DNA from: Vicugna vicugna
Lineage: Eukaryota
Reading direction: 5' to 3'
DNA length: 64,000 nucleotides
NCBI GenBank assembly: GCA_013265495.1
Contig: MU058226.1
Span: 644,741-708,740 of the forward strand
In this document: positions 13,417 through 62,176 of the stretch, piece after piece
How positions within the stretch are numbered: position 1 is the stretch's first letter
How the letters are laid out: every line of letters begins with the position of its first letter
The notes under the pieces: generated by a model
Database searches by the model: none
What the model saw: only the letters and a program-made list of their open reading frames with translations
What the model was told of the DNA's origin: nothing
Position numbers and translations under genes: made by a program

Positions 13417-13497
13417 TCATGGAGTGCTCCGATCCATGACAGGGGGGTGATAAACAGCTCTGGCGGGTGGATTAAATGGATGCAGGAAACAGTTTTT
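13417..13497 (-). CDS. HCG22: HCG22 orthologue exon 3, cytoplasmic tail
   Basis: Acceptor ctttctttcactctag|, then KNCFLHPFNPPARAVYHPPVMDRSTP*. It shares the AVY.P motif with the MUC21 tail. Candidate AATAAA at 12824-12829. Spliced product is 251 aa. Confidence 0.7.
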   Translation of the reverse strand, partial: KNCFLHPFNPPARAVYHPPVMDRSTP

Positions 13498-14532
13498 CTA
13501 GAGTGAAAGAAAGCGGTTTGGTTTCAAGACTTGGTTTGTCCTTTATGCTGTACACCAGAAGTTGACACATTGTAATTGACTATACTTCAGTTAAAACAAT
13601 TACCACCACCAAAAAAAAAAAAAAAAAGACTTGGTTTGTCTTTTAACCCTGGTGGTTGTGATTTATCAAGATCCATCCAGTTCATCTCTCTGACTCCTTC
13701 CTATTTACCATTTTCTTCAGATCCTGACACTTCCCACAAAAGAGACACAACTTCCAAAAATGTTGATGTCATGTGGGAAAAATAAAACTATTTTGATCAG
13801 TGGAATTGTGGGGAGGAATGGAAATAAAGATAATTCATATTTTAAAAACTTTTTTTGTCAAATGTTTGAAAGTTTAAAATTCAGCAAGTTCGGGAACACA
13901 GACTTTCCCCTTACTTCCTGTACCCTGAGACTTTTGAACCATCTCTTGTTTTCAGTCTCTACAAGGGGTTAAGAAGGTGCCAGTGATCACTCAGTGCCAC
14001 ACTTAGAGGCTGGTTTGGAGGGAGGAAAGGACCCACCAGCCTGGAGCAAGAGAATCTGACTTTTCATCATGATTCACATGATCAAAAGCTCACTTGTTTG
14101 TGATCACAATGAAGTCAAGAAGGTCCTCCCTCTACTGATGAATATTGAATGTGACTCATGCGTGTGCCAAGTAGATACTGAAGCTTTCATTTTGTCAGCC
14201 GTCCTTCAGAATGCCCTAGTTTCACAGTGTGATTTTGGTGAGATTAAACCATGAACATCTCAACTGAGCAGAGCATTACTTTTGGCTTAATCACACTTAT
14301 AAACCGATCCCGAGTTGTGGGTCTGCTGCTTGGGCCAGAGGTCAGTGCACAATGGCATCAGTGACCAACAAGAATGATTGAGGGTTTTTTTTTTTTGAAT
14401 GAGGTTTTAATGACCTGTATGAGCTAGCTAATTGTCTAAGCCACCCCTTGCTAAGATTCCACCGTAGGATGACACCAAAGGACCAGTCCTTCCCCATCCA
14501 GCAGAGACCAGAAGTTGAAGGCTTGGATTTTA

Positions 14533-14635
14533 ATACTTGTTCTTCTTCTTCTTTTTTAAATGGAGGTACTGGGGACTGAACCCAAGACCTCGTGCATGAG
14601 GCATGAGCTCTACCATTGAGCTATAGCTTCCCCCC
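14533..14635 (-). mobile_element. tRNA-derived SINE (vic-1-like)
   Basis: Same consensus; TSD aaggcttggatttta (14518-14532 and 14636-14650). Confidence 0.88.
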
Positions 14636-15365
14636 AAGGCTTGGATTTTAGACCAAAAGTCAGCAAGAGGAAGTCACAGGCTGGCACAGAGTCCTTTTAT
14701 CTCCTTTTGTAGAAACGAGGCCCCTCAGAGACATTAAAAGACCCAGAACTCCCCACTGAGAGCTGTCACGCATTGTCTCTCCAGGAAAGAGTAGCTGTGC
14801 TCATTAAAACCTACCCAGTCCTGATTTTAATGATCTTTTGCAGAATTTCAGGGTGGGTGGTATTAATACAAAACAGCACAATTTCTGACACAAGTGGCCA
14901 TCTAAAATGTTTCCATTTTCTCCTGTTACCCCTCAATTTCTCATCTCTGAAAAGTTCCAAACATCTATCTTTAACCTTATAGTTTAATCCTTGCTCCAGC
15001 TCTCACCATGTCTCACTATATTTGTGTTTTTGTGGTCCTCTTTCTGTCCATTTTATCTCTCTGCATACTCTCTCCCCTTCCCTCTTCCTCTCCTTTCTCC
15101 CTCTGCCTTTTCCACCTTCCTCCCTCCACCTCTTCCACCTTCCTCCCTCCGCCTCTTCCACCTTCCTCCCTCCCTCAGTTCTGCCCTCAATTTTTATGCT
15201 TCCCTTTCTTTCTCTCCATCTCTGTCTCTCTGTGTCTTTGCAAAGCTCTATGCAGGTGTCCTCATGCCTGATGATTTCACACGCCTCAGTTCCCAATGCC
15301 CACCTCATCCTCCTCAGATGCCCTGTTCCCATGATGTCCTTAACATTTCAGGGCCAAATACTCAC

Positions 15366-15973
15366 CACAAGGAAGCCAAATCCAACAAAGAGTGCAACAG
15401 TGACAGCGGTGGCAGCCAGGGAAATGAGGATGATTCTGATGGGTGTCTGGAGCCCAGGGGGTTTCACTGCCGTCACTGAATCTGTTTCCTCTGGGTGAGT
15501 GTCTGGGTGTTTAGTGGTGTAATTTTCTGTGTCTTCAGTCCCTGGTTCTGAAGTGGTGTAGTCCTCCATGGTCCCTAGGTCTGCTGTGGTGTAATCCTTT
15601 GTGGTCCCCAGGTGTGCTGTGGTGCGGTCCTCTCTGGTCCCCGGGTCTGCTGTGGTGCGGTCCTCTGTGGTCCCCGGGTCTGCTGTTGTGTGGTCCTCTG
15701 TGGTCCCCGGGTCTGCTGTGGTGTGGTCCTCTGTGGTCCCCGGATCTGTGGTGGTGTAGTCCTCTGTGGTCCATGGGTTGGCTATGATGTAGTCCTCTGT
15801 GGTCCCCGGGTCTGTGGTGGTGTAGTCCTCCATGGTCCATAGGTCTGCTGTGTTGTCCTCCATGGTCCCCAGGACTGCTGTGGTGTAGTCCTCTGTGATC
15901 CCTGGGTCTTCAGTGGTGTGGTCCTCCCTGGTTCCTGAATTCAAGGTGGTGTAGTCTGCAGAGGCTCCTGTGT
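15366..15973 (-). CDS. HCG22: HCG22/PBMUCL2 orthologue exon 2: DPGTTED repeat domain and TM helix
   Basis: Acceptor ctttctctacag|AC. Stop-free 608 nt with ADPGTTEDHTT repeats and TTKHPDTH (recalled human PBMUCL2: ADPGTTEDSVT...TTKHGDTHLL), then [33 protein letters not shown]|gtgagt (phase 0). Confidence 0.82.
15549..15941 (-). repeat. Coding VNTR, about 12 x 33 bp (11 aa, DPGTTEDHTTA)
   Basis: Visible in DNA (gtcctctgtggtccccgggtctgctgtggtg) and in the translation. Confidence 0.9.
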
Positions 15974-17074
15974 CTGTAGAGAAAGTCTTTTTTAATGTGG
16001 ATCATTGATGCCCATCATCATCTGTTCTGCTTAATATTTTTCATAACTTTCTTGCCCATTCAAATGATATCTTTCCCCATATAATGTGGTTGGACTTATT
16101 TGAGTTAAGTATCATCTGATATTTTAGATTTAATTCTGATTAAACGTATTCCACAAGATGCCCTACAATATGGAGTATCCAGATCTAATTCATGTCCTTA
16201 GACGGTCTTCTCATCCAGCCTTTGATTCTCCCTTTGTGGTTCTAGTCTCTTTGTAGACCTCACTTCCCCCTGCATTGGTATGTCAGCAATCCAGCCATTC
16301 TGACTCCACGTTTGTATGTGTTGCCTCTCATCCAGGTATGCCTGGGTCTCTGGCAGACAAGTGAGGCAGGAGCTATGACTTTTATTAGAGATTAAATTCA
16401 GGTCATGGGTTGGTATATGATTTAGAATGAGGCATCTCCCGGGTTGGATCCGGGGCAGAAGTGGCAAGATCGAAGGCAGGTAATAGTCAAGGTGGTCTGA
16501 GGGTAGGAGGAGTCATAAGGGGTGGTGAGTGTGGTTTGGCTGGGGTTGACAGCAGCACTGAGTTGGATATAAGTAGAAGGAAGAAATTAATCTTTTCCCC
16601 TCCCACCACCCCCACCTGCAGGGCATCAGGACTGAGAGTATTTACTCTCATCAATAAATGCAGCCTAAATGGCATAAATTTTAGAGTCTTGGGTTCCTTT
16701 GCCCCAGAGAGTTCATCCTACCTGCTGCTGATTCCCCCAAATTCCTCAAATAAGGCTCAAATCTTTCATTTCTTAAGGAAAGTTGAAATACAGGAACTTA
16801 AAGTCTAAACAATCAAAATCAGAGAATTTCCTTAAGAGAAGATGCTGGAAAGAGATGAACAGGAACCCTGGGAACACTGCTTCCCTGTGATAGGGAGTTT
16901 GGGGCAGGTCACTAGGTCCAGAGATCCCCAAGGTCCTCTCATCTATCCTGTTAACTTCACTCAAGACTGACCCTGCCTGAGTCCTAAGAGGACCTTCTCC
17001 AAGGATCCCGATCCCCACATCTCCAGACCCTGGGGAACTTTTGTGCCCTTTTCTCCAAAAAATAGTTCACTCAC

Positions 17075-17141
17075 CCAGTTCTAAACACCCAAAGAGAAGC
17101 AGCAGCAGAAGAGATGTGGCAGGGCATTTTCTTGTTTTCAT
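17075..17141 (-). CDS. HCG22: HCG22/PBMUCL2 orthologue exon 1, signal peptide
   Basis: ATG at 17141 gives MKTRKCPATSLLLLLLFGCLEL-G|gtgagt (phase 1). TATAAA at 17243-17248. Confidence 0.78.
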
Positions 17142-18231
17142 CGCTAGAGAATCCACATGGGCTGGAAGCCAGGATGTCTTTTCCTCCCTCCTCGCTACTT
17201 TTTCTGTCTTCCCTTCTCCTTAAGTGCACAGTGGCTGTGACGTTTATATGAGCTGCTGCTAAAGGAATCAGGAAGCCTGGGTCTTCTTTCCTTCTTTCAG
17301 GGAGGAACAACCGCTCCTCTACTCTCTGTCAATCAAGGGAATAAGAATCTGTTAGAGAGGAGTGACAGGGCGGAAGAGAGATGTCACAGATGCAAGAAGA
17401 GGATCTTGGCTCTGGTCCAGGGCCCAGAGTTGAGCGGTAACAGGGGATCAAGCTTGTCATCATGGGTGGCATCACTTTCAGATGCAGAGCCCTAGGCAAA
17501 AGCTGTCCGCCACACCATGTCTCAGTGCTCGGAGAAGGGCTTGAACTTCCTTTTCTGCAGGTGGGCGTGGGAAGGTTGGGGTGACTAAGGAGGGTACATG
17601 CCAGGTCTGCCTGGGGGACAGTGCATGGTAAGAGGAGAACTAGATGTCAGAGGGCATAGAGCATCTTAGTCCTTAACAGGAAGGAGCATTGATGAGGGAG
17701 GTGGAAACACTCAATCTCTTTATCTTAAAACCACCCTCTTCTCTCAGTCATCCACCAAAGTCTTTTTCAGTGGCTCATCTCCCACCTGCAGTTTTACCTC
17801 CTTGCTCCTATTACTTGATTGCCCTCACCCCACTAAGCTTCCCTCAGTGACTAGATGAAATTAGTTCACCTCCAAGGGTCCCATTGGGCTTGGAATGAGA
17901 AAACCCATGCTCCTTCCTTTTCTGACTCCCATCCCGGCCTCATTCAACATTGTCCAGAAAATTATAGCAGCTTGTTCTCATTCAGAGGCAGGAAGTTTCC
18001 TGCCCTTTGGGGGGCATCTCTTTCCCAGTGTCATCCTAAGTGGAATAGGAACTAGGGATTACAGGAAGGCTGGGACAATGTTCCCGTCTCTGATGGCAGC
18101 TGATTTTATGAAAGCCAATTTAATGAATGGCCAGTATACCAAACTTAATTGATTACTTCAACTACTAACTTTATTTGAATGGATTAAATATTTTTGAGAA
18201 AAATATTTAGATAAATTAAGAAGGTATTTGT

Positions 18232-18361
18232 TGGGGGGGAGGATATAGCTCAGTGGTAGAGTACGTGCTGAGCTTGCATGAGGTCCTCGTTCAACCCGCA
18301 GTACCTCCATTAAAAAAATCATAAATATACCTAATTACCTCCCCCACCAAAAAAAAAAGAA
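18232..18361 (+). mobile_element. tRNA-derived SINE (vic-1-like)
   Basis: ggggagg-atatagctcagtggtagag...cagtacctccattaaaaa...cctaattacctcccc; TSD aagaag[g/a]tatttgt. Confidence 0.88.
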
Positions 18362-20330: not shown

Positions 20331-21985
20331 TATTGTTTTGAAGATAATCTATGTATTATTCATAGATGATATCAGTAATTATTCATCAGTCAAGAATAAA
20401 CTATTTTTCTGGTATATATTCTTGAATATATTCTTTCATATGAAAATTTTAATAAATATATTTTTAAGTATGTTCTTGATTATAAAACATATCATAATCA
20501 AGAAGATATTCCCAGTATCCCCTCTGCCTGTCCCCCAGTCTCTAGCTGCAGCGGGAGGGAGACAAATTGATTATTATTTAAAGAAAATAAGATAATTTAA
20601 AAAAAAAGAATTCAGAGAATTAATTTTAAAAGAATTGTTTTGAGTTTTTAGATGAGGACCTTCTTAAAACAAACTTTAAATAAAAATCACCATGGATTCT
20701 GGAGATGAAGTTTTTTTTTAACTGCTGGGCAAAAGCCTGTTGAAATCCACTTTTCTTCTTGATTCCTATTTCCATGTTTTTGTGGTCTTGGATTTGTTTG
20801 TTTGTTTGTTTGCTGAGACATTACAAAGACCTCTGGATTCCCATCCTTATGAGATTCCAGCCTCTACTTTCTACCCAGGTGATCAGAGTGTTCTCCCTTG
20901 GAAAAAAATTTGTCCTGCAACATTGTAAAATGAACTGTTGGCTTCCTGTTGTCACGGGTTCTCGCCTCCTTGGTATGGCATTCAAGGACACACAGGTCAC
21001 CCTCTAGTCACATCTCCCTGTGCTGTCCCATCAAGTCCCATAACTCTTTTGACTATTCCTGTCCATGTCACACCTTGTTGTGCACAAAGTTTTCACTTGC
21101 CTGGCATTTCCCCTTCTCCTCCTTGTCAATGCCTGCTAAGTCTGTAATCCCCATCAAAGTCATCTTCTGTGTGAGTCAGCCCCTCTTCCCCTTGGTCAAG
21201 TTACATGCTTCCTCCTTGGGCACTTCAGTTTGTGTTGCTTGATGCATTGGCCTAAACTTATTTGTCTACAAATCTGTTTCCTTTACCAAACTGTGACCCA
21301 CGCATTCATCCTTGTTACCCCAACTTCTCAGGGCCTGGTGCCAAGCAGGTCAGTGCTCTGGAATTATGGTGAATGGATGAATGAAGAAATGAGTGAGAAA
21401 TGTGATCATTGTTTTAAGATAAAGGACTAGAGACTATTAAAGTTGAAGGGGAGATAACTGATAGACTAGTCAATGCCTTCAAGAATAAAACCATATATAG
21501 TAAAAAAAAAAAAAAAGACAAAACCCTTTTTTTATGATTTAAATGTACAGTTTAATGAATTGTTCTAAAATAAAAATCCGTGTAACCACTACCCAGGCCA
21601 AAAAACAAAAACCGGTCACTGCCCTAGAAACCTCTATGTGCTCCTTCAATTACGCGCCTCTCTATCCCTGCTAAAGGTAGCCGTTGTCCTGACTTTTACA
21701 GTAATCGCTACATCAATGTTCTTTGTACTAATGGTACCTAGCTTCGCATTCCTGAACACTCCAGTTTAATTTTGCCTGGTTTTGAGGTTTCTATTTATAA
21801 AGTGAAAATTTTTTGACCTCTTATATCTGACTTCTTTAGCTTAAAAATTAGCTTTGAAGCATTTATCCATATTGTTGTGTAACAAAAAAAACCCTATTAA
21901 ATATAACTAAAAACATTTTTTTCTGAAGTAAACTTGTAAACAGTGAAATGCACAGATCTTAAGTATTCAGTTAGATAAGTTTTTT

Positions 21986-22237
21986 ACCTGAGAGCTTGTT
22001 TGGAGGTTCTAGCAGGAGAGCGCAGCTACTCGTATACCCTTGACCGAGCAGAACAGTCCTCCTCTATCGGGGATGGTCGTCGTCTTTGATCGACCAACCG
22101 AGTGCTCAGCTTGGGGAGGGACGCACATGAAGCAGTGAGGGAGGAAGGGGGACACCCACCTAGCCAGCCAGATCAGCTGAATCAACCCTGGCGATCAATG
22201 GAATACCAGATGTTGCAGCCTGATTGCCCTCACATCC
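21986..22237 (-). pseudogene. RN7SK: 7SK RNA retrocopy, 3'-truncated
   Basis: The minus strand reads GGATGTGAGGGCAATC...CCATTGATCGCCAGGGTTGATTC...GGTCAAGGGTATACGAGTAGCTGCGCT...GAACCTCCAAACAAGCTCTC, i.e. the 5' ~240 nt of 7SK. Flanked by TSD tag[a/g]taagttttt (21972-21984 and 22238-22250). Confidence 0.92.
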
Positions 22238-23800: not shown

Positions 23801-26151
23801 TCAGGACCACTCGTGTCTCCCAGTCAGCTCCATGGCTGCAGGAAGAAACAGGTCTCCTCTGAAATCAGTTACAGTTGCCCTCGACCCTTCTGGGACTTCA
23901 TAAGAGCCATGAGGGTATGGCCATGGTGGTGGTGCGAGATCTACGCTGAAGAGGTTTCTTAGGCTCAGAGAGTTTCTCTAGAAAACAAAAGGCTGAATAG
24001 TTTCAGAGCTTTGCCCCTTCTTCCAGTGCTCTCCAGTCTCAAGCACCCTCTTCCTGCCAGCTCTCCCCACCTCGTTATTTCTTTTTCCCCTCAGCAGTTC
24101 TTTTTCCCCTCAGCAGTTCCGTCTGAATATGTCTTGGCTTTTCTGACCCTCTGTCTTGCTGGCTGTAACCTGGGGTTTCTGTGTCTTCCCTGATTTTTCA
24201 TCCCTGTTACTCCCACAGTGACCCTGCTCTCTCTAGCCTAGTTCCTTCCTCACTTCCCTGCTCTCTTTCCCTTAGAAAAAGAGTTTCCTATACATCAGGC
24301 ACTCACAAAATGGAAGAGGAGTCCAGTGAGGAGAGTCACCGCCATTGCAACCGAGGCCAGAGTGACCAGGACGACTTCCCCAGGCCTCAGGTATCCTTTA
24401 GCGTTTTCCTCTTTCCTTGGTGGGGCAGGACTTGTGCTGGTGCCATTGGAGGTTGTAGCTGTTGTATTAGTTCCACGGGGTGGTGTGGTTGGTCCAGGGG
24501 AGGTGACTGTGGTGGTCCTGCTGGATGGTGTGGTTGATTCAAGAGAGACGGCTGTTGTGCTAGCATTAGAAGTGACAGCTTATTAAAAAAGGTTGGCTGG
24601 TTAGTTCCATTAGAAATTGTGCTTGGTTCTGCAACTACCACTCCTGCTGTCAACAACAATAATAGCTATCACTTATTGAATGCTGACGATGTTCCGGGCG
24701 TTGTGCTAAGTGCCACAGAAGACTTAGTACTTCAAATACTCATAATACCTTCGTGAGATAGGAACTGCTATTACCCCCATTTTACAGATAGGGAAATTGA
24801 GGTTTAGAGAAGTTAAACAACTAGTCCCAGGTTAGACAGCTAGCAGGACACAGAACAGGGATTTAAACCAAGGCAGCCGGACGCTAGAGGCAGCCCTTAA
24901 CTCATATTCTGGTCTGTAGCCTAGGTCGCATAACCTGGGGACTCACGTGACCCGGGGTCACAGGTGTTATTCCTTCTCTATTTGTGATGCTCTCCAGATA
25001 AAGAATATAAAAGAGATGGTTGCAGGGTCCATGTGTGTATATTGAGCTCCTCTCCAGATGAACTATACCCTTCTTCTAGGGGAGACATAATCAAGGGGAA
25101 GTGTGGGAGGGGGAATAATGCGCATTTTTACTACTATCAGGTAATTATTATGCACACAAAAGTTTGGGACCCCACGCAGCCTTGGCCCCTGGCCTGGCAG
25201 AGAACTAGCCACATGAGCTGGAGGAGGTGAGATCTCCCAGGGTTCCTGGAAGGGACCCAACCTCCTTGGTTAGTGAGTTAGAGTTAAGGTGAGGCCCGTG
25301 CTTTTCCCGTCTGCCTCATGCCTATTTTCTACCCTGTTCTGATTTTCCATCCCAGTAAACAACCCAGCTCTTGGCCTCCCGGGTGCCTAAATACCCTCAC
25401 GTCATCCATGGTCCTGTGCTTCTGCTGGGATATGGGTTTTCTTCCCCTTGCTCTATGCATGTGTTCCTTTCTTAGTGTTGTCTGGACTGACATAAAGATT
25501 GCAAGTTTAGATTTAGGGGAAGAATCCAAAAACTTCCAACGAATGCCTCTGATTAGGGTTAGGGTCAGGGTCAAGAGGGAAACTAAGTGAGATGAGAAAC
25601 TGGCCTGTGGAGAGGGGATAGATTTGTTGTGTGTTGTTCAGGGGCATAAAACAAAGGAATCAAAGCCATGTGGGGCAAATTCTGGAAAGAATTTAAGTTA
25701 TTCGAGGATAGAACAGCACACCCCCTGACAATTTTAGTTAGAGGCTAGGTGACCGCCGTCAGAGATGCTGGAAATGGACCCCTGCCTACTGTGGGTGATC
25801 AGACATTAACTTTAAGTTTCCTTTCAACTCGAATGCATCTCAATCGGAGACTGATTTATTACAAAGGAAATAGGCCAGACTTCCAGGTAGAAGAGTTGTT
25901 ACTGGGACCAGAATGAAGAACAAATGCTAGGTTGGATTGAAGAGAGTAGAGCAAAATATTGGTCCTTGCTCTTTGGTGAGAATGAGAGCTAACAGGACAG
26001 AGTGTGCAACCCAGGATTGGTCAACATTTCTCCCACACTCTCCTCAAATTTCAAGACTATCCTCTTTGAAACAAAAACACTCACCATTTCCTAAAAGTAG
26101 TAGAAGGTGAAACCACAGCCAACAAGCAAAGAAAGATGTTTTTCTTTTCAT
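23801..26151 (-). pseudogene. MUC21-like duplicate, disrupted or rescued by an alternative acceptor
   Basis: Exon 1 is 26085-26151 (MKRKTSFFACWLWFHLLLLLGN-G|gtgagt), with TATAAA at 26427-26432. Exon 2 ends at 24307 with KGYLRPGEVVLVTLASVAMAVTLLTGLLFHF|gtgagt. The paralogous acceptor at 24646 is out of frame with the TM; an AAG acceptor at 24578 is in frame. Exon 3 (23801-23977) starts [16 protein letters not shown] at 23614-23619. Confidence 0.7.
24660..24900. mobile_element. MIR abutting exon 2 of the MUC21-like duplicate
   Basis: Core cccattttacagatagggaaattgaggtttagagaagttaaacaact. Confidence 0.75.
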
Positions 26152-27440: not shown

Positions 27441-28779
27441 TTAATCTCCATTGGTATCTCATTGACTTGCTACAAGCTGGACCTGCTGAAATACCCTATA
27501 CCTAGAATGGAACACACACCATTAAAAGAGGGGAGAAGTTGGGGGTCCTGGTCTAGGATATTCCACCTTCAATCCGTCTCCTCATGCCTGGCTGCCTCCC
27601 CCAGCCAACATGTGTGATGTGCACACCAGGTCACATCCCTAAAGCCTCCAGCCTCCCTCTCCTAAAAGTCAGATAGGCGTGTTCTGTCTTCCACTGGGAC
27701 AATCATTTGGCCACCATCTTTTCCCCTCCATTGGCCCGGAGGACATTATAGCACACAGAGAAGCCTTTACTAAATTCACCCATCTAACCTTAAACGATAG
27801 CTAGCAAAGGCTGCCTTTGCTGAACTCTGAAACGTCTCTAATGAGAAAAGCTGTTCTCCAAAATAGGACGGCCATTATTCAAACAGCATGTTAAGTGTTC
27901 ATACCTGATAAGTCTGCTAATGTGTCATCTGTATTAAATCACATGAGAACACAAGTGAACGCTCTGAGTGATCCAACCCCCAGCCTAGGGAACTTCACAA
28001 ATCAGTGGTTCAGATCATGGGTCTCTTGGTGGAAAAAGTTGTCCTAGATTTTGGGGATCATTATCTTAATCTATGTTTTCTCTTGCGTATGCCTAGATTG
28101 TTCCTGTGACATCTGCCTCCAATGCAGCCAGATACCTCCCAAACGAGCCATCTCCGTGCTAGTGAAACCCCTTGCTGATCACTTAGGACACACTGCAGAA
28201 GCAAGGTGGTTGGTGCATAAGATTATAAGAGCCGGCCATGAGGTGGCAAGATGTCAGAGGAGGTCATCAAGGAGATGTGACCTGGGTTTGACTCACGAGC
28301 TGGCCCTGGGTAATTGGAGGCTCCTCCTGCCCTCCCCTGTCCTTGGGATAGTTGAGCGACTCCTACACATTGGACAACCAAGAAAGTACCCACCTAAAAA
28401 CGGATAGGAAAGGCTGAGACAACACTCACTGTATAACCCCCTGTTCCAGCACAGTACCTTACAGTTGGGAGGGAACACCCAGCTCCCAGCTTCTCCTTGA
28501 GGAGTAAAGAGTTTAGCCCACACATCCAGTGCCCCAACTTTTAAGGCTGCCACCAGAGGGATGGGCCTCCAGATTGCTTAGCTCTGAAAGCCAATGGGGC
28601 TTCCATTCAAGAATCCCACAAGACTAGCAAACAAGGGAGCAGTTGTTAAATGGATGTGCAAGCACTTCCTACACCTGTTCTTCCAGGCTCAGGCAGTGGG
28701 AGCAGGCGCAAATACCTATCTCCCGCTTACTGCCTGGAAGGAGTTTGTCTCCCAGCTTCTGCTTGAGGATACAGCTTCT

Positions 28780-34492: not shown

Positions 34493-34624
<132 letters not shown>

Positions 34625-34960: not shown

Positions 34961-35689
<729 letters not shown>

Positions 35690-35699
35690 TCATAAATGA

Positions 35700-35920
35700 T
35701 AACAAGTATAGTTTCTGCTCAATGCTTGGTTAAATTCATTACGTGGATAATTCTATTTAATGCTTACTACAGCCCTATGAAATACATACCATCAACTGCT
35801 AAGATGAAAAAGCTGAGGCTTAGAAATGTTGACATTTGCCCAAGTTTATACAGCTAATGAGTAGTGGAACAGGAATTTGAACTCAGGCCATTGAATCTGC
35901 GCTTTTAGCGACCATGCTAA
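35700..35920. mobile_element. MIR abutting exon 2 of MUC21
   Basis: Core agatgaaaaagctgaggcttagaaatgttgacatttgcccaag...ggaatttgaactcagg. Confidence 0.7.
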
Positions 35921-37516: not shown

Positions 37517-37580
37517 CATTTTCTAAAAGTAGGAGATGTAATAGTAACCAATACATAAGGGCAATGTTTCTTTTCTGCAT
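37517..37580 (-). CDS. MUC21: MUC21 exon 1, signal peptide
   Basis: MQKRNIALMYWLLLHLLLLEN-G|gtgagt (phase 1), similar to recalled human MKMQKGNVLLMFGLLLHLE. TATAAA at 37849-37854. Confidence 0.82.
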
Positions 37581-41849: not shown

Positions 41850-46170
<4,321 letters not shown>

Positions 46171-46196
46171 AAAATTAGTTTTGGTCTTAGATTAGA

Positions 46197-46402
46197 GCAA
46201 GGGTTGGCGAACTTTTCCTGTAAAGGGTCAGATGATAAATTTTTAAGATATTTGATCACAGTCTCTCTCATAATTATGCAAAGTAGCTGGAAAGCAGCTG
46301 TAGATGTGCACAAGTAGGTGTGGCTGTGCTCCAATAGGACTTTATTTGGGAAAAGAGACAGCAGACAAGACTTAGCTTATGAAGTATAGTTTGCAACCGC
46401 TG
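46197..46402. mobile_element. MER58-like DNA transposon
   Basis: gggttggcgaacttttcctgtaaagggtcagat...tagtttgcaaccgctg. Confidence 0.7.
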
Positions 46403-49013
46403 GACCAGCGGTCAGTATATTGAAGACGAAGTGGTGATGTCAGAGGTGGCCTTGTGGGGGTTGGGGGTGGGGTCCCCATTTACCTGCATCTGGGACATGA
46501 AGAACCTTCCCCACTCCCCCAAACACACACCCTTTGAGCTCCAGTGCTCCATTTTGATCCTTGAGGCCTTGGTTGGGTTGGATATTTTGCTTTATTTTGT
46601 TTTGGTTTTTATTTATGTATGTATGTATTTTTATTGAAGGGTAGTAGGTTTACAACATTGTGTTAATTTCTGTTGTACAGTGTAGTGTTTCAGTTATGTA
46701 TATAAGTATATATATTCCTTTTCATATTATTTTTATAAGATATTGAATATAGTTCCCTGTGCTATACAGTAGAACCTGGTTATTTTGGTTTGGTTTGGTT
46801 ATTTTTAAATTAAGGTTTTTAAATTAGGGTTCAGCCTGGGGAAATTCAATGGTTAGAGGCTGGGGTTGGGGGTTATCTGCTTTCTGTCCAGGGTGAGTGA
46901 CACTCCTGTCCTGGCAGCTGCCTCATGCTGAGTCCCATCTGCCCAGATAACTAAAAACTGGGCAGCCTCCTCCTTTTTCCTATGGCACTCCAGTGCTCTT
47001 CTGGAACCCAGGTGTCCTTCTCTGCCTCAAGGCTTTCTCTCCAGGGATATAAATCTGAGGTCCCACTGGCACCTGTGTGCCTCCTTTCTGGGCAGAGCAG
47101 ATCTCTAGTGGGAGATTCAGAGACTCTTGGTCTGAGGGCCCTCCTGGCAGATAATTCAGTGACAAGAGTGTCCAGATTAGGATTATTGTCCAGGATGGGC
47201 CTCCAGCTTTCCCACAGATAGCTACCCACAGCCCTGCTAGTTGCTTCTGGCAGGAGTTAAGGTTGGAATGCCTGTGGAAAACTAGAGTGCCTTCCCGATC
47301 AGTGAAGACGCTGATGCCACCCTCCTCTGGTCAGAGTGACAGCTGAGGCTACGTGGATGATGGGCAGTGGTCCTGCTGGGACTGACACCTGGGCCCTGAA
47401 GCAGGGCTGGTGTCCTACTGTGAAATGGGATATGGCAGATGCCCGTAGATATTGGGTTTAATTCTTTAGAGTCTGGTTTTATACTATGTGGTACTGCCTT
47501 GTGAAAACTCTTACTGAATTATTTAATTCTCCTGTCTCTGTGTCTCAGATGGGAGCTGTGTCTTATCCTTCTTTGTAGTCCTCAACAAAATATATAAAAG
47601 GTGCTTAGAAATACTTGCTTGTGAATTAACACATTTCCTCCTCATTGGGTCACCATGCAAATGAGCCCAGCATGAACTCAGGCTGGCTCTTCTAATGATG
47701 CTTTACTTTGTAAATAGTGTATACTTTATTATAAAAAGACCAATAGATAGAAAGAAGCTATCTGTCATCATTTGATTCTCCCTTTTCCCTCTACCCAACC
47801 AGTAGTAGGTGAAAGGGCTTTAACAAATTGGAGAGAAAATCCAGAAAATGTACACAGATGAAATGTCTCTGGGGAAAAATACCAGAATCTGGGATGAAGG
47901 CATGAGGGGAGAGGACAGGGGCAATAGAGAAGACTCCTACAGGAAAAAGCCAAGACTTTGGGGCTTTGGAGGAAGAGACAGGAAAATAAATGATGCGTGG
48001 GAAACACCCTCAGGGAAGGTCTGGGATGGGGATCTATGCATGAGACTGCAGGCCAACAAAAATCCCTCCCTGCGTGCCCACCCACCACCCACCAGTCAAA
48101 CCCACAGGAAGCCCACTGTAGACATTTAGAAAAACTAAGGGATTCAGGAGGAAGAGGGAAGAGCCATCTGGGTGAGAGATATTTATGATCTTTTCTGGAA
48201 TTCTCCTGGGATTGGAGAGGGTGGAAAGGAAAATAAATCTTTTCTCCTTGGATCCTATTTAAAAAAAAAAAACCAAAAAGTCACTAAAGGGGATAGGAAG
48301 GGATAAATTAGGGGTTCGAAATTTGCACCTCTTGGGGAGTGATGGAAATTTTAGGTATCTTGATTGTGGCGGTGGTTTCATAGGTGTATACATCTATCAA
48401 AAGTCATCAAATTGTACATTTGAAATATATGTAGTTTATTGTACAGGAATTATAGCACAATAAAATTGTTAAAAAAAAAAAAAGAACAAAACAAAAAGTC
48501 AGGGGCCCTGGAAACTCAGAGATAAGCCTGTTTACACACAAACTCTAAGTGATGGTAGGTGGAGATAATATAGGTTGGTCCTGAAACCCAGGGGCTCTGT
48601 CTTCCATCTCCCCCTGCCCATAATCCTGATTCAGTCAGGCCTGGGGCATTGCTTTCTAAGGCTCCCCAAAATCCCTTCACTGCGCCACCTCTCACAGGAC
48701 TCAGAGCCTGTATTTGTCCCCACCTCATGTATCTATCAGACATCTTTTCATTTTCAGATCATCATCTTCTACAGAGAATACTTGCTTGTATTACTCATTC
48801 TTTCTTTTTTTATACTCCAAACACACACCCTTTTTGCTTATCCCTTCATCCCTTGACCAGTTTCAATAAGAACACAGCAGTTGAAGGGTTAATGTGTTAA
48901 CTGTCAGTACTTTGCCCTTCCTGGAGTCAAGGAAATAGGAATTGTGGGTCTAATCTTCCATCTAGGAAAGAGACAGGGCATGGAAGAGCTGAGGGTGGGC
49001 GATTTCTGAAGGA

Positions 49014-49154
49014 TCATCGTGGGGAAGGGGTCTTTCCAAGAGTCTGCTGCTCCATCAAGTGGACTGGGTAGGAATTGTGGCCGCCATAATACTCTGGGTC
49101 ATTGTCCTCAGTGTTCTGGATCTGTGCACTGTGTGTTCCCCTCAAAGAGCAGAA
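49014..49154 (-). CDS. MUCL3: MUCL3 exon 3, cytoplasmic tail
   Basis: Acceptor ctcctctcacag|, then FCSLRGTHSAQIQNTEDNDPEYYGGHNSYPVHLMEQQTLGKTPSPR*. This matches the recalled human tail ...GGPNSYPVYLMEQQNLGMGQIPSPR. Spliced product is ~460 aa. Confidence 0.88.
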   Translation of the reverse strand, partial: FCSLRGTHSAQIQNTEDNDPEYYGGHNSYPVHLMEQQTLGKTPSPR

Positions 49155-49658: not shown

Positions 49659-50821
49659 CAAGAAGATCAGGCCAATGAATACCAGGAGGAGAATCACACT
49701 CAACAGGACCACAACAACTATGGCCCATGCAGGGAAGGAATCATTCTCCCCCGAGCTATTCTGGTGTGGTTGGCTCTTGCTGCTAGGGGCTTCTGATGTG
49801 ATGGAAGGGGCTCCTGTGGTCCTCTTGTGGCCTGATGTGTTATTTCCTCCATGTTCCATGGGTTCTGCCGAGGCACCTGTGGTCCTCTCGTGACCTGGTG
49901 TGATCTTTCCTCCGTGTCCCGTGGGCTCTGCCGAGGCGTCTGTGGTCCTCTCGTGGCCTGGTGTGGTCTTTCCTCCGTGTCCCGTGGGCTCTGCCAAGGC
50001 GCCTGTGGTCCTCTCGTGGCCTGGTGTGGTCTTTCCTCCATGTCCCGTGGGCTCTGCCGAGGCGCCTGTGGTCCTCTCGTGACCTGGTGTGGTCTTTCCT
50101 CCATGTCCCGTGGGCTCTGCCAAGGCGCCTGTGGTCCTCTCGTGCTCTGGTGTGTTCTTTCCTCCGTGTCCCGTGGGTTCTGCCGAGGCGTCTGTGGTCC
50201 TCTCGTGACCTGGTGTGGTCTTTCCTCCATGTCCCGTGGATTCTGCTGAGGCGTCTGTGGTCCTCTCGTGGCCTGGTGTGGTCTTTCCTCCATGTCCCGT
50301 GGGCTCTGCTGAGGCGTCTGCAGTCCTCTCGTGGCCTGGTGTGGTCTTTCCTCCATGTCCCGTGGGCTCTGCCGAGGTGTTTGTGGTCCTCTCGTGGCCT
50401 GGTGTGGTATTTCCTCCATGTCCCATGGGCTCTGCCAAGGTGCCTGTGGTCCTCTTGTGGCCTGATGTGGTCTTTTCTCCATGTCCTGTGGGCTCTGTTG
50501 GGTACTCGTTGCTTGTTTCTCTTCTGATTGTTGTGCGCTTATGACAAGTTGTCTTGCTGTTGCGTGTTGTGGCTGCCTGTTTTTCAACAGATCCCGCACT
50601 TGTGCTAGTGATTGTGCGTTCATTCCGGTTACTTAGGCCTTCTTGATTGCTGGCATTTTGTTCAGAAGTCAGAGGTGCTTCAGGATGAGTTACAGAGTTT
50701 ATGGAGTTATCTTTAGCCTGGTGATGGGGTGTGGTATTGCACTGATGTTTTGGCTTACTGGATTCTGTAGCTTTAGGGAGGTCTGGAGAGCTGGTTCCTG
50801 AAGATATTCCGTCAGAATAGC
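49659..50821 (-). CDS. MUCL3: MUCL3 exon 2: mucin ectodomain with tandem repeats and TM helix
   Basis: Open frame (ORF 49629..50840) with KHQCNTT, AEPTGHGG repeats and GENDSFPAWAIVVVVLLSVILLLVFIGLIFL|gtaagg (phase 0). The 5' boundary is uncertain: the orthologous acceptor before 50896 reads AA, so the in-frame acceptor ttccttccaactccag|GC at 50821 is used here. Confidence 0.85.
49806..50498 (-). repeat. Coding VNTR of MUCL3: 11 x 63 bp (21 aa, AEPTGHGGKTTPGHERTTDAS)
   Basis: Units counted directly in the translation; internal copies are nearly identical. Confidence 0.92.
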
Positions 50822-53800
50822 CTGGAGTTGGAAGGAACAAATGAATGGATGGTGGTAATTCAGGAGTTTGCCGAGATGTTTGAAGTGTGATAACACTTGT
50901 GAAAGGAGAGAAGCGAATAAGAAACTTTCTCCATCCTCTTCCCTACTTCCCTTCTCACTTCATCTCTAGGGGTCCCTTATTACCCGAGGTGTGTCCCCCC
51001 AGCCAGTCTGTTCAGAATATTGTGATATCTAATCCCCATTCTCACCTCCAGTCCCTGGACCTTTGTTCAGGCTGTGCTTTCAGCAAGAATGCCACCCCTC
51101 TCCTCTCCATCTCTACTCTTCAGTTCTCAATTTCAGATCTTTCTACCTTTATGGCATCTTTCCACCTTTATGGCATCTTTCCTGATCTTTCCAAGCTGAT
51201 AAGATCCAGCTTCATCTCAGTGCTCAAAAAAAATTCTTTGTTAGTTACTCTTTCCTGCTACCTTCAACTTGACCTTACAGTTGTTTGTGTGCTTGTCAAC
51301 TTCTACCTCCTGTCTGGCTTATCACATTGTAAGATTTTTTTTAATTGAAGTATCATCGATTTACAATGTTGTGTTCGTTTCTGGTGTACAGCATAGTAAT
51401 TCAGACCAAATTGTAGGATTTGAATAGTACACATTGACTGGCATTTTGCTTTGCAAGTGCTCCCTTAGGGTTTATATACTTATGGAATGGAGTTGCCTTT
51501 TCCATGGCAGAGCTGAGAGGCAAGGGAATAAATATGAGAATCTCCATCTTTCCATAATATTCCAGCTCCATCCCAGATGTAACTGTGTGAGAGACTGAGG
51601 TTAAGACCTCTGGCAACACTTCCCACCGGGATTAGTAAGTAGGCACAGGGGACCAGTGAGAGGATATGAGGAGGGGTGGAGGATGCGTGGAGGAGGGGAT
51701 GGGAAACTTTCATTTTGGTGATTAAAGTTGGTCTGGATTCAGGGAAGCAGATGAGATGATTCAGCCCTTATGGTTCCCCACTGGCTCCCCCTCTTCACGC
51801 ACCTGAAGCCGTCTGGGATAGAAGAAGGTGGCCTTTCTGAAAGAAGGATATCTACCTGGGGGTCCTGGGAGGCGTGAGTGGGACAGCTGCATTCTGGGAG
51901 GGACTGGCTGTGTTTAAGGACAGGGTGTGAGGGGAACACTCCTATCGATGAACAGATATTGGCTGTAAATCCATGGAAGAACAACCAGTGGGGACAGAGG
52001 AGGTGTCTCTGATATCTAGCCCAGAGAGTGCAAGCCAGGAGATCACCGGAGAGTGAGAGAGAGACAGTGGGGTTATAGGACTGAGATTTCCAGGCTCTGT
52101 TAGCTCAAGGTGGCAACCAGAACCCAGACACACTCCCAATCCCAGGAAACCATGATATGCCCACTTCCCTGCTGACAGGGAGGGTTGAGGGTTGCGGAAC
52201 TCAGTCCTTGAAAGAAACACAAGTGGGATGAGAAGAGGGTGAGGGTGGGAGAGAAGTCCAAGTCTCTAATGGGATTCGAGGTTGGGGAGAAAGAGGAGGG
52301 CTGAACTGCCAGGTCCTCACTTCACCGGGCCAGTTCCATTCTCTAATTCCTTAGGCAGCAGTACCGACAAGGGCCATCACTTCTTGGGCCCCTTCTCTGG
52401 GTCAGATGCTCGACTGGGTTGCCCCACAGTTGTCCTCTTTCTGGGTTGTCCTCTCGGGGTACTGACTTCCCAGCTCCCCATGAGGTACTTTAGAAGCTGT
52501 CAACTTCCCTATTTTATAGCCAAGAAACTTGAGTTTCATGGAGAAATGGTGACTTGCACACAATCCCACAGCCACAACCATGGCTGACCTTTCTGGAACA
52601 CTCACTGTGAGACAAACAGGTCCTCAGGAGGAGGACGTATATTAACTCATTTACTTTTCACAACACCCCTTTGAGGTAGAGAACTATTTGTTAGTCTCCC
52701 CTTTTTATAGACGAGGAAACAAGGTTCAGAGAGGTTAAGTAATCTCCCCAAAGACACCCAGCAAGTAAGAGGTTGAGCCACAACTTGGAACACACATTCC
52801 GGGCTCCCAGGGCCAGGTTTTTACTGGTTAAGACCACACTATACATTCTATAGGTCAAGTGTGTTTTATTCATCGCTATGTCTCCAGTGCAGAATGTCTG
52901 GTCCATAGGAGGCACTTCATAAATATTTGTTGAATGGATGAATGAGAGAGAATATTTTAAGACTGGTGAAAACTCTTCAGAAGCCATGCCAACAACTTTT
53001 TGTTATGCACATTAAGTAAAATCAAGCATAACTGTGACCACCAAAGATTGGAAGACCAAGGGGTAACTTCTGCTGTGTTAAGTAATTGAGTCCCTGAGAT
53101 GAAAAGAAGTTGGAAGAAGGTTTCTAACCCACCGGTTTTGGGCTATTGGTTGTTATTTAACCATAGGAACCACACAGTCAATAATTAGACTCAGATAACT
53201 AGATCTTGGAATTCTAGATCTGCATCACATGGTTGTGGATCCATCAATTAGAAAATCTGGAGTCAAAACTCAAGGAGTCCTTGGTCCTGAGCTATGAAGC
53301 AAGTCAGTGACTAAACTCCCAGGATGAGAGGACCATCTCTCTCCCCAGGAGATCTACCATTGGTAGCAACTTTATTTTCCTAGGAAATTCTCACCATGAG
53401 CTGTTCATTCCCCTAACTACAACAACGGTCTGAAAAAAACCTTTTTGGTCACTTTTTGGCAGAGAAGAAAATCTGGTTTTAGCATAAGACACTGGAGGTG
53501 GATGCCTAGCCTGGATGAAAGAATGGAAACAAATCTCACAACATCGAAACTATATACAATTCCAAAGGCCTCTTCAATCTGCTTTATTCACTCATTTGAA
53601 AAGAAGATGGACATCCTGCTAAGTGACTTGTGCCTTGGGGTTTCTGTCAGAGCAGTCTCACTTTAGAAGAGCGTTTCTGGTGTTTCTTGGTGTCCTGCCC
53701 TTCAAAAATGACTTACTCCATTTGCAAAAATTAAATGCTTGCTAAAATGTCCATACAGTGTAAGTTCAATATGTGACCTAAATCACAGACAGAGTCAAAA

Positions 53801-56044: not shown

Positions 56045-56123
56045 CTGCCTCCAGAAAGAGAAAAAGGAGAAAGCAGCACTGGAGAACAAAGATGGAACGG
56101 AGACAGTGGGCGAGCTGGGCCAT
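56045..56123 (-). CDS. MUCL3: MUCL3 (DPCR1) exon 1, signal peptide
   Basis: ATG at 56123 gives MAQLAHCLRSIFVLQCCFLLFLFLEA-G|gtaag (phase 1). It resembles the recalled human MUCL3 N-terminus (MAQPVHSLCSAFGLQCCLLFLL...). A TATA box lies ~50 nt upstream. Confidence 0.85.
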
Positions 56124-58043: not shown

Positions 58044-59173
58044 TTTTTGTTGTGTAGATAAACGTCTCCTTCTCTTTTAGGCACAGCTTCCTCCAGAGGA
58101 CACAGACATCTTGGGTGGAGGAACCTGGAGGTAGGTGGAAGCTCACATGGACCTCTTAGTGTCAGTAGAGCTTGCTGTGTCTGAGCTAGAGGCTGAGGGG
58201 CCGGTCACAAAACAACCCTTCCCGCTACTGCTGTGTCAGCTGTTCCAGCTACTGAAGCATGCTGAGCACCGTACCTATGAGGCTGTAACCTACGAGGTTA
58301 GCAACGTCAGCCTCACTTTACAGATAAGAACAAACAGTCTCAGTTCAGGGAAGTGACTTGTCCAGGGTCACACATCTTGTAAGCAGCAGAGACTAGACCT
58401 GGCTGGTGCCTGCCTGACAGCAAAGTCCACGCACTTGGACAAATTAAAAAGTGGCTGGGAGACCAGTGGAGGGGGTGCTGTTTTATTTAGCAAGAGTTGT
58501 GTCCACCACCCACCTGGAGTGGGCATCAAAGAACAGGGTTCCTCACCTGTTCGAGATGAGAGAATTGGGGGTCTTGAAAGGGTCAGAAGCCAGCCCAAGG
58601 GGGCTCCATATAGAAGGAGGTGGTAAGGGGGACCCTGGTCCTGTGCCCTGGGGGGGCCCAAACAAAGTATCCTCAGCCAAGGAGCTTCTCTGATAGGCGG
58701 GGAAGAGGATGGGAACAGAGGGAGGAAGGTTCCAATTGCCCAGACTCCGTGAGCCCTGGGAGAGCCCTGGAGATCATCCAGCCCCGGTGCTTCCTTCTAC
58801 AGAAGAGAAAACTGCATCTGAGTGGTTAGGTACCAGACGGCAGGCTGGCGGCAGGGCTGGGACTGGTATCTTAGCCTCTCATTCAGTGGCTGACAGTGGT
58901 CTTCCCCTTACACTGTTGGTGGAAGAGACCCGGGGTGCCAGTGAGCCCAGAAATCCACCCACAGGAAATGTCTCCAGTTAGTGTGAGTACGAAGGCTGAG
59001 TCCTGAATGAGTCTATTCAGGAGAGGAAGGAGGGAGGCCAAAGGCAGGGGGGCATGTGGCTATCCTGGCCCCGCCCTTTCACTTGACAGAGTAGCACTGG
59101 CTGGTGGCCTCATGGTGGCAGCTGTAGGAGTCACAGAGCCACAGCCTCACCCCACACTCATCTCCTTCCGGAA

Positions 59174-62100
59174 CTAGCAGCCCTGTGAAATGAGAGATGG
59201 AGAGGATGGGTTAACCGAGGGCCCCAGGAACCTGCTGGCCAGCCCTCAGCTCTCCCCACGGACTGCTGCCTCCCTCAATAACTCAGGTTCTCAGAGTGCC
59301 TCTTCCAGCAAAAACAATCATAATAATGAATTGGACTAATTTACTGAGCACTTACTATGTGCCAGGCACCTAAGTGCTTTACATGCATAAACTCATTTAA
59401 TCTTCCAACAGCCCTGAGATGAATACTATCCTTCTCATTTTATCCAAGACTAAATTACCTCATTGGTAGAATGAGAGGAATAATATTACCTATATCACAG
59501 GGCTGCTGTGAACTAAAATGTGGCACTTGGCACATAATAAGTGCTGTTCAAGTGTTAGTTATTATTATTATTCATGAGGCATCTGGAGCACAGAGAGGTT
59601 GAGTAACTTGAACAAAATCACACAGTTATAATGGCAGAGCCAGGATTCAAAACCCAGGTTCTGTAACTTCATGGAGTTGATTCTTCACTGCCTAGAGCTG
59701 AATTTAGTGCTTCCAGGGGCTGGTCAGCCTGCAGTGCTCCCCGGCCTCTCCTTCAGTGGCCGCATCCCTGCCTGGTCAATGCTTCTCAGCCACCCAGACT
59801 GGGGTTCCGTTTTCCCCTTGCCCCTCCCTAAGTGTGGCAGGCTGTCATCTTTTCCCGAAGCCCCTGTTCATCTTGAAGTTCCGGGGCACTAGGTCCCAGC
59901 CCCGCTGGCCTCAGAGACCCACATATTTGGACCATAGCTTCCACTCACCTTCTTAATACCATACAGTAGGCTGAAGACTGCTGTCACCACAGTGAGAGTG
60001 ATCAACACGATGGCCCAGTCTGGGACAGAGCCCTTTCTCTGAGGCTTCAGGCCTGAGGAACAGAGGGGGACAGTGACCAAGGCCAGTGGGACCCCAATGC
60101 CCCCATCCTCCACTGCCCTCCATGACCTCCCATCTTTCCTTCTGTGATGCTGATGTCTGTGCAATTCTAAGACCACGTTTCTCTGTGGAGTTCTGTCTTG
60201 TCATCTTGGGAACAGAATCTCACTAGAGGGGTTTTAAAGGGCATCAATCCAAGCCCCAGCCACTCTTCCCTGACACCTGTGGGCATGTCCTTCAATCTCT
60301 AAACTCCTCACTGACATCCACATCTCTCCATCTTTCTGAACCCTCCTCCATATTGCAGGCTCTACTTTCCGTGTCTCTCTCCACCTGTGATGTCTGCCCT
60401 GCAAGGGTCCCCAGGTGGGCCTCTCTCCTTCTTCTGAGGCCCTTTCCTCTCCACTGCCCCAGCCCAACTCTGGTCACTAAAAGGAGCCAGAGCTTGTTGT
60501 CCGGTTTTCTCTCCACTCATTTCTTGCCTTCAGACTGTCGGGAGAGGGTGAGAGGGGTAGACTAGGATTGAAGGGGCAGGGAGAAGGGGACAGAGGGAGG
60601 AGGGAGGACAGGATCTCTGGAAGGGATGCTTGTCGCCCTGGATAGGCAGATCGGGCCACAGGGAAAGAAGTCAAAAACCAGGTAACAATCAGGTAACAGA
60701 CATCTGGCTGCTGGTCTGACCAGAGGCTTTGAGAGGGCACTGAAACCCTTTTAAGAATTGGAGACATCCTCAGACATCCTCAGAACACAGTTGAAAGCAG
60801 GCACTAATGCCTGTCCCTACACTCATCTCCAGGAGCCAAGGTGCCTGCAGGTCAATGACCCAGTGCAAGTAAGAGTGCCTTACTGGTCAGGATGCTGAGC
60901 CCTGGGGATGTTGTGGCTGTGCTAGCCATGGTGGTCATGGAGCCTCCTGACACAGCCCCACTGGGTGTGGAAGTCCCAGGTACAGCTGAAGCAGTTCCAG
61001 GGGCTGTCATGGGGGAAACATATCCTAGAAGGGCAGAGGGGAAAAATGGCTGGAAGAGATCTGAGTGAGAGCAGAAGCAGAAATTATGTCTAGTGTCCTC
61101 TCCATTGAAATCCTGGGAAAGTTTTTTGGTAGAAATTGATCAACTGAGTCAATAAAAATGAAAGGATTGAGAATAGCTAGGACAATCTTAAAGAAAAACA
61201 AAAGTGGAAGACTTACACTACCAGATCTCCAGACTTGCTGCAAAGCTGCAGTCAGTAAGTACGGCAGCCCTGGAGTGAGAATAGACAGAAGAGAGTCCAG
61301 AAACAGACTCAACATGTATCTGGTGACTTGATTTTTGATAAAGAGATTCACACAATTCTATGGTGGAGAAAGAAGGGGGGTCTTTGAAATAAATAGTCTT
61401 GGAGCAACTGGTTATCTGTAAGGGGAAAAAAGGAAACTTGACCCCTACCTCACTCCATACACAGAAATTAAGCTGAGATACACCATAGGCTTACATTTGA
61501 AAGCTAAAGGAATAAAGCTTCCAGAAGAAAGAATAGGAGAATATTTTCATGACCTCAAAGTAGGCAAAAAAAAAAAAAATGTCAGGCAGGATACAAAAGA
61601 CACTATAAGAGAAAAAGTTGACATGTTGAAAAGCAGAAAGAGGGCCTTTGTATAGCCACCAAGGCCAGCGCACTGCTTCAGTGAGTTTCCAGGGAACTCA
61701 TATCTTACTCGTGGCAGAGAACCGGAAGCCCCCACCCAGAGCTATGGGCCAAGCTAAGGAGTCCTTCAGAGACAGATTGAGCAACAGAAATATCACTTGG
61801 CAACATTGACGCTGCTCCTGAAGTGCTCCCAGGAACTGTCAGAGATAAAGTCTGAGGACTACTGGGCAGCACCCCAGAGGCTGGAGAAACTGTTGGGAAA
61901 CTCGCTGAGATGGTGGGGAGATCTGCAGAGATGGTAGGGAGACCTGCAGAGATATCCCCAGAGGCAGGGGGTATGCCTTCAGCTACAGTAGAGATCCCCA
62001 ATGGGGTCAGCTGAGCTGTTGGAAGAAGAACATGATAAGATGGTGTCATAAGAGCTGGCCATCTCTCTCGGTCCAGTGTCCACATCTTGACCACAAGGCC

Positions 62101-62176
62101 TCAAGTCAGAGCTCCAATGCTCACCGTATCCAGCCAAGGCCTGCAGGCCCAAGATCAGTACCAGTGTGGTGTCCAT
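59174..62176 (-). pseudogene. Unnamed TM mucin-like gene A upstream of MUCL3 (5 exons; apparently disrupted)
   Basis: Exon 1 is 62125-62176 (caccATGG; MDTTLVLILGLQALAGY-G|gtgag). Exon 2 (61709-62015) is S/T/P-rich and ends in phase 2. Exon 3 (60884-61024) is S/T-rich, phase 1-1. Exon 4 (59949-60052) reads LKPQRKGSVPDWAIVLITLTVVTAVFSLLYGIKK|gtgagt. Exon 5 from 59182 reads GC* (TAG at 59174-59176). Confidence 0.7.
61100..61640 (+). mobile_element. Old LINE-1 ORF2 fragment in intron 2 of gene A
   Basis: ...agaatagctaggacaatcttaaagaaaaacaaaagtggaagacttacactaccaga... is degenerate ORF2 sequence. Confidence 0.75.

Follow-up and report, generated by a model that had tools for sequence, protein, structure and literature searches.

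The human 6p21.3 region harbours a cluster of mucin genes (MUCL3/DPCR1, MUC21, MUC22/PBMUCL1 and HCG22/PBMUCL2), and the grouping of MUC21 with MUC22 is stated in the available passages of PMC8020203 and PMC10588101. According to the passages of the latter, the glycosylated repeats of MUC21 block cell-cell contact by steric hindrance, with MUC22 placed third in the same screen, and literature available in part links the human interval to diffuse panbronchiolitis, steroid-induced ocular hypertension and tumour immune evasion (further works cited are PMC13345508, PMC9917798 and PMC11199685, each in part, and PMC12363710 as a reference entry). Pfam already joins the MUC21 and MUC22 types. So far the genes of the interval have been viewed as mere neighbours or as orphans. 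MUC22 is given as primate-only in one survey; the available text of Pajic 2022 (PMC9417175) describes it as an orphan, present in human and chimp alone and missing from mouse, cow and ferret. Here, a stretch of 64,000 nucleotides from Vicugna vicugna (assembly GCA_013265495.1, contig MU058226.1, positions 644,741 to 708,740), called the window below, was identified by Pfam matches and named homologs as the MUCL3–MUC21–MUC22–HCG22 interval of the South American camelid major histocompatibility complex (MHC). It represents the known MHC mucin cluster with new members in it, and no new kind of system.

The window contains six co-oriented loci, all on the minus strand, referred to as A to F. Locus A corresponds to human LOC124901299, B to MUCL3, C to a broken MUC22, D to MUC21, E to an unnamed MUC21 paralog and F to HCG22/PBMUCL2 with a transmembrane (TM) helix. 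Like the human cluster, the interval thus holds orthologs of all four named genes in one co-oriented row, and human also has the locus-A model; unlike the human cluster, it has the additional MUC21 paralog, the broken MUC22 and an HCG22 with an intact helix. A sequence-only reading of this DNA had proposed a gene family larger than the four genes named in human, and the surplus of loci was confirmed: A has the human counterpart LOC124901299, while database searches gave no named human counterpart for E.

The same reading had assigned one exon grammar to all six loci. The six juxtamembrane strings were located in the window, all on the minus strand, and at 6/6 loci the TM helix is directly followed by an in-frame phase-0 GT(A/G)AG donor (59948 in A, 49658 in B, 45007 in C, 34969 in D, 24306 in E and 15365 in F), a motif with a minus-strand background of 0.0021 per base; in every one of the six groups the same splice residue is used by the gene models of other mammals. 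Phase-1 signal exons were likewise recovered at five loci (Table 1), although a phase-1 intron after the signal exon is frequent in cell-surface genes and is weak evidence of kinship. The uniform grammar itself broke down at A and C: only B, D, E and F consist of signal, mucin+TM and tail exons, because A has five coding exons, in which the mucin part is spread over two exons and the TM part has an exon to itself, and C has a separate stem+TM exon beginning at its own phase-1 acceptor. The ectodomains are rich in Ser, Thr and Pro, the general hallmark of membrane mucins, with combined fractions of 0.46-0.52 (A), 0.37 (B), 0.58 (D), 0.64 (E) and 0.39 (F). Clear repeat periods were found in B, D and F, whereas the 7-aa period in A was weak (2.8 copies, TRF score 67, autocorrelation 0.25). 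Although the periods differ among B, D and F, the earlier notion of unrelated repeats was not confirmed: the repeats of D and E have a common ancestry and are not independent, since the Galemys E-type ectodomain shows the 15-aa period of D.

Kinship of C, D, E and F as one family with a common TM exon is well supported by sequence comparison. C and D exceeded the gathering score of 27 bits for PF14654 (Epiglycanin_C; scores in Table 1), D also passed PF05647 (Epiglycanin_TR), and the window exons of E (24.1 bits) and F reached E-values of about 4e-5. The PF14654 cut-off was passed by 3/3 E orthologs (30-37 bits) and 4/4 C orthologs, while the F orthologs scored 26.8-27.7 bits, two of the four above the cut-off and the other two within 0.2 bit of it; E and F were counted as members by way of these ortholog scores and of DNA paralogy. 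A profile of C/D/E/F homologs, from which the window rows had been excluded, gave 48-67 bits on the four window exons and 11 bits on A, and B had no listing in this search of the window exons. Pairwise hhalign values among the four were 72-99%, and the similarity extended to DNA, with TM exons about 65% identical between C and D, C and F, and D and F. Between D and E, identity amounted to 65% over 817 nt of promoter and exon 1 and to 59% over 846 nt, introns included, and the likeness of this pair also takes in the tail. We assign a probability of roughly 0.78 to the reading in which these four loci form a TM-exon family, probably by old tandem duplication, and A and B, next to them, are predicted membrane mucins whose kinship is weak or unproven.

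A broader origin, with a single ancestral membrane-mucin gene behind the whole set of six and A and B as its oldest and most diverged copies, appears doubtful, though it is the most probable alternative. It would fit the co-orientation of the neighbours, their common phase-0 donor after the TM helix and the phase-1 signal exon, as well as the weak PF14654 matches of 5/7 A-type (14-18 bits, top family in 4) and 4/5 B-type orthologs (15-19 bits, top family in 2), and hhalign aligned A with D (92%), B (91%) and C (86%), and B with D (61%). However, these 14-19 bits lie under the 20 bits that the unrelated Smim3 family scored on C, the window exon of B gave no PF14654 match at all, and TMEM52, TMEM9, TMEM154 and PRIMA1 reached scores like those of PF14654 on the B orthologs. 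The hhalign values were also uneven, at 84-92% for A to B/C/D/E but 4% to F, and 1-61% for B across C-F (C 16%, F 1%). At E 0.01, neither A nor B had exons with DNA similarity to C-F, and signal peptides, tails and exon numbers are unlike; compared with the epiglycanin families, the repeats of B and F are of other kinds and the tails of A, B and F are without match. In the Atlas comparison, SMAGP, TMEM154 and syndecan stood above MUC21 (rank 13) for A, no MUC21 row was among the matches listed for B, and the neighbours of the two were SMAGP, TMEM154, stannin, opalin and syndecan. Small type-I proteins (SMAGP, TMEM154, glycophorin A, SMIM3, syndecans) resemble these loci in their helix features and, in the Atlas, rank level with or ahead of MUC21 for both A and B, but they gave no significant match to C-F beyond Smim3 at 20 bits. 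Family membership of B is unsupported, because its TM exon is no closer to MUC21 than to unrelated type-I proteins such as TMEM154, stannin, opalin and syndecan, and A appears only weakly linked. The single family on a common scaffold envisaged earlier accordingly stands for C, D, E and F, is not supported for B and is borderline for A; TM similarity no better than that to unrelated type-I proteins was seen for B and nearly so for A.

Table 1. Exons and candidate exons of the six mucin loci, in window positions
Feature	Position	Strand	Remarks
A signal exon, 52 nt, phase-1 donor	62125..62176	-	same exon in homologs P0002 and P0071
A mucin exon 1, weak 7-aa repeat	61797..62015	-	match to P0002 stops at 61799
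A mucin exon 2, phase 1-1	60884..61024	-	74% identical to bat homolog P0013
A TM exon, phase 1-0	59949..60052	-	PF14654 16.4 bits, under cut-off
A Cys-rich tail exon, two stops and frameshift	59078..59182	-	73-87% identical to bat P0013
B signal exon, 79 nt	56045..56123	-	homologs
B mucin+TM exon, 21-aa repeat	49659..50896	-	AA at homologs' acceptor position (50896)
B tail exon, open	49014..49154	-	homolog comparison
C decayed Ser/Thr-rich region, stops in three frames	45430..46300 (approximate limits)	-	
C stem+TM exon, phase 1-0	45008..45378	-	PF14654 62.3 bits
C Gly/His-rich tail exon, frameshifted	41980..42306	-	57-74% identical to P0001, two frames
D signal exon, 64 nt	37517..37580	-	
D mucin+TM exon, 15-aa epiglycanin repeats, open	34970..35679	-	PF05647 85.6 bits, PF14654 63.1 bits
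D tail exon	34493..34624	-	stop after 43 codons
E signal exon, 67 nt	26085..26151	-	alpaca LOC116284500, sheep 'mucin-21-like'
E mucin+TM exon, 340 nt	24307..24646	-	one base out of frame near 24580
E tail exon	23801..23977	-	open in frame of ruminant models
F signal exon, 67 nt	17075..17141	-	
F mucin+TM exon, 11-aa repeat, open	15366..15973	-	PF14654 24.5 bits
F candidate tail exon 1, 251-aa open reading frame (ORF)	13417..13497	-	
F candidate tail exon 2, 355-aa ORF	9364..9756	-	used by sheep model

A profile of the six TM exons, searched against 1.84 billion representatives, returned 43 matches, of which 41 fell into the six types by their best stretch (A 10, B 9, C 6, D 12, E 3 and F 1); the other two, P0022 and P0039, were dropped as unrelated. 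The TM-exon tree was built on 36 columns and 57 of 68 rows, leaving out 9 near-duplicate rows and 2 in which the helix is frameshifted. Each window locus was placed beside the orthologs of other mammals, with starred clades for A, B, E and F, and by this placement the duplications would predate the camelid-primate split. The copies are thus old ortholog groups and no recent camelid births; what is borne out of the birth-and-death turnover proposed earlier is lineage-specific loss together with at least one duplication, that of the F type in sheep. Most births appear to be ancient, whereas deaths differ from lineage to lineage. A block duplication of two genes (D-C, E-F) would be conjectural, because the tree gives C+F a support of 84/0 and does not join A with B. 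Losses in this camelid assembly concern A, C and E, and the passages and Fig. S9a rows available for PMC9417175 score HCG22 as missing from mouse and cow and MUC21 as missing from ferret. The repeat-driven mucins described in that source resemble the present loci in the fast gain and change of repeats on a kept scaffold and in their patchy presence among mammals. As far as its available text goes, the present results differ in three respects, namely that MUC21-, MUC22- and HCG22-type genes appear as paralogs instead of orphans, that MUC22-type exons occur in the camelid, in Galemys and in a wombat model, and that sheep has PBMUCL2-like models where HCG22 was given as absent from cow.

Locus C is a MUC22-type pseudogene, because no signal exon was found in the window, also with a signal-peptide profile, and several lesions are present, while TM exon and tail are of the MUC22 type. 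The stem+TM exon contains an internal stop and frameshifts upstream of an intact helix, so that the locus falls short of an intact MUC22 with its long repeat exon, signal, TM and Gly/His-rich tail. MUC22-type TM exons in the camelid and in Galemys contradict the status of MUC22 as a human- or primate-specific orphan, and by these comparisons MUC22 is neither. The wombat model, labelled mucin-22 automatically, suggests that MUC22 may be of therian age. Searching a mixed A/C profile against longer proteins gave 3 matches, all A-type, among the best 8000 candidates, which is weak evidence on the range of MUC22.

Locus F carries the 11-aa Asp/Pro/Thr repeat and the signal peptide typical of HCG22/PBMUCL2 and had 14 matches, 5 of them named PBMUCL2-like, at 55-69% identity. 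It departs from a secreted, helix-free HCG22 in that its helix is in frame and intact, as also in models from Piliocolobus, pig-tailed macaque and sheep; human HCG22, we assume, lacks a TM helix and is secreted. Among eight primate PBMUCL2-like models, two have the full helix (P0053, P0070), two a frame shift within it (P0056, P0069), two stop precisely where the TM-bearing models continue with Arg or Gln (P0054, P0059) and two leave the exon earlier (P0050, P0068), and a seal model shows a frame shift at the helix. Arg, Gln and stop at one site, as seen in the proteins, would fit a CGA codon mutating at its CpG, and HCG22 without TM helix is likely a truncated membrane mucin; repeated decay without function may be an alternative explanation. 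In one sheep assembly, a pair of diverged F-type models bears locus tags close to each other, which suggests a recent duplication. The sequence at 16990-17075 (minus strand), just past the donor of the signal exon, resembles a coding N-terminal extension of primate PBMUCL2-like models (P0001 match), suggesting that this donor may have shifted in some lineages. With regard to the tail, the first candidate exon in Table 1 was not significant as a MUC21-tail homolog (4.6 bits, rank 10 of 2319). The second, which lies outside the span 13417..62176 covered by the sequence-only reading, is a 130-codon open frame with 47% identity over 92 aa to the last exon of a sheep PBMUCL2-like model and may be the real last exon.

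Locus D has the 15-aa epiglycanin repeats, the TM exon and a MUC21-type tail (34.6 bits) and groups with named mucin-21 proteins; its tail is shortened by the stop, which deletes the last conserved motif and leaves a 301-aa ORF. Locus E is, by sequence comparison, a distinct MUC21 paralog. Its tail exon matches a Vicugna pacos model at 100% and a Camelus ferus model at 98% identity, models from alpaca and wild camel alike bypass the broken part of the mucin+TM exon, and the gene is open in reindeer, sheep and goat models (154-159 aa). The sheep 'mucin-21-like' model corresponds to E and not to MUC21, which changes ortholog assignment. At 35500-35888 in D and 24486-24874 in E, intron sequence is 56% identical, with an apparent old interspersed repeat in the same place; such a common repeat would date their duplication.

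Locus A matched human LOC124901299 and Rhinolophus LOC141571854. It is open for 172 residues through the helix if the weak, inferred phase-1 donor of mucin exon 1 (GTGATA, 61796) is used, and the first tail stop lies two codons into the Cys-rich tail, which also holds the second stop and the frameshift. A piece at ~61040-61640, which we take to be L1-like, lies in the intron preceding mucin exon 2; that it splits a mucin exon was rejected, given the clean acceptor at 61024 and the homolog matches. In the available text of PMC10078292, the single paper found in a literature search for the name, LOC124901299 is one of the human MHC genes for which a macaque haplotype is listed as having no ortholog. 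A Pteropus alecto map (available part of the PMC4753418 table) shows unnamed plus-strand models between VARS2 and DPCR1, one of which may be locus A. Locus B has an in-frame AG at 50821, 75 nt downstream of the homologs' acceptor, which yields a 460-aa ORF. Its name, MUCL3 (DPCR1), is presumed from its position and from that table. The earlier count of five damaged loci holds only if mild changes, the late tail stop of D and the AA at the acceptor position of B, are included; A, C and E are clearly broken, and F is open.

On one strand, the window order is MUCL3, MUC22, MUC21, E and HCG22. In human, distances from HLA-C of 279 kb for MUC21, 234 kb for MUC22 and about 215 kb for HCG22 (available passages of PMC7848197) give the order MUC21-MUC22-HCG22, so that MUC22 before MUC21 is the reverse of the human arrangement. 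Fused models elsewhere read MUCL3 then MUC21 (P0003), MUC22 then E (P0004) and MUC22 then F (P0001). The gap of only about 2.7 kb between MUCL3 and the MUC22 without first exon would fit duplication of a MUC21-MUC22 pair followed by reciprocal loss, but this cause of the swap is without direct support, since a DNA comparison within the window found no remnant of a second MUC21 or MUC22 copy between the loci; transposition or misassembly may also have produced it.

Taken jointly, the data could be read as a six-locus therian MHC family from one ancestor with two unnamed members (the LOC124901299 type, and E, lost in humans and intact in ruminants), in which MUC22 predates the marsupial-placental split, HCG22 repeatedly passed from membrane to secreted form through a CpG-codon stop or frameshifts just before or in the helix, and camelid MUC21 and MUC22 were reordered by tandem duplication and reciprocal loss, a combination that we consider unlikely to hold in full. 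That lesions and gene order are assembly errors, with no real camelid turnover, is quite improbable: the loci are repeat-rich, the break in E adjoins a T run, and lesions and order are read from the assembly, yet the 64-kb window is free of N, the models of alpaca and of wild camel skip one and the same part of the E exon, and many independent lesions occur in C and three in A. Least probable of all are independent mucin origins from unrelated small membrane genes or de novo, with a generic TM likeness, an orphan-mucin view that could draw on the unlike repeat periods of B, D and F, the treatment of MUC22 in the available text of Pajic 2022 and the Smim3 scores of the Trp motif, but that is refuted for C, D, E and F by intron-level similarity between D and E, their promoter similarity, the TM-exon DNA of C, D and F, the Pfam and profile scores and the MUC22-type exons of Galemys, wombat and camelid, and is thereby confined to A and B.

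Several points weigh against the four-locus family with its two neighbours. The 36-column tree does not resolve C and D as clades, nor the deep forks, and the search with 43 matches is partly circular because all six types were represented in its profile. The orthologs are for the most part automatic gene models, several of which are fused or partial, and the camelid loci, lesions and gene order are known here from assembly DNA alone. Two candidates compete for the last exon of F, and no full-length A protein with signal, mucin, TM and tail was found in any species searched. The F stretch, whole or in part, was present in 20/24 listed sequencing runs, with no RNA run listed among them.

Elsewhere in the window, 21899-22237 (minus strand), between E and F, is a full-length 7SK RNA match (Rfam RF00100, 176 bits) and likely a retrocopy. 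Weak Rfam tRNA matches at 850-913, 3761-3823 and 14561-14630 carry no ARAGORN gene, belong to a dispersed repeat family and are likely tRNA-derived short interspersed nuclear elements. The stretch 1-680 is rich in GC and CpG, with a possible splice donor near 488; another gene, or a non-coding RNA, may begin there on the far side of HCG22. A 321-aa open frame lies at 2731-3696 (minus strand), which we liken to the C-terminal part of LINE-1 ORF2, and intergenic open frames of 100-120 codons at 27950-28450 and 46900-47350 look like repeat-element remnants.

In the probable scenario, one membrane-mucin gene gave rise to C, D, E and F through old tandem duplication. Intact members would be type-I proteins with a signal peptide, a Ser/Thr-rich repeat stalk, one helix and a short tail, and the TM exon would be kept as repeats and tails drift, lineages then dropping different members by frameshift, nonsense change, exon loss or helix loss. 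By analogy with MUC21, B, D and F in this camelid and E in ruminants may be expected to shield the cell surface sterically through O-glycosylated repeats. Should function depend on the bulk of the stalk more than on signalling by the tail, some redundancy among the members would follow, leaving repeats free to change, tails to decay and single lineages to lose members. Exon structures, lesions in the assembly, ortholog groups and family scores are observed here; glycosylation, expression, function and the order of the duplications are our inferences.

A literature search found no comparative study of the cluster, of locus E or of an HCG22 with TM helix, although the founding papers and subscription reviews may note the paralogy. 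Recognition of MUC21, MUC22, HCG22 and an unnamed fourth gene as probable old paralogs would affect ortholog assignment and the choice of valid animal models, and the origin of HCG22 would become directly testable as the truncation of a membrane mucin.

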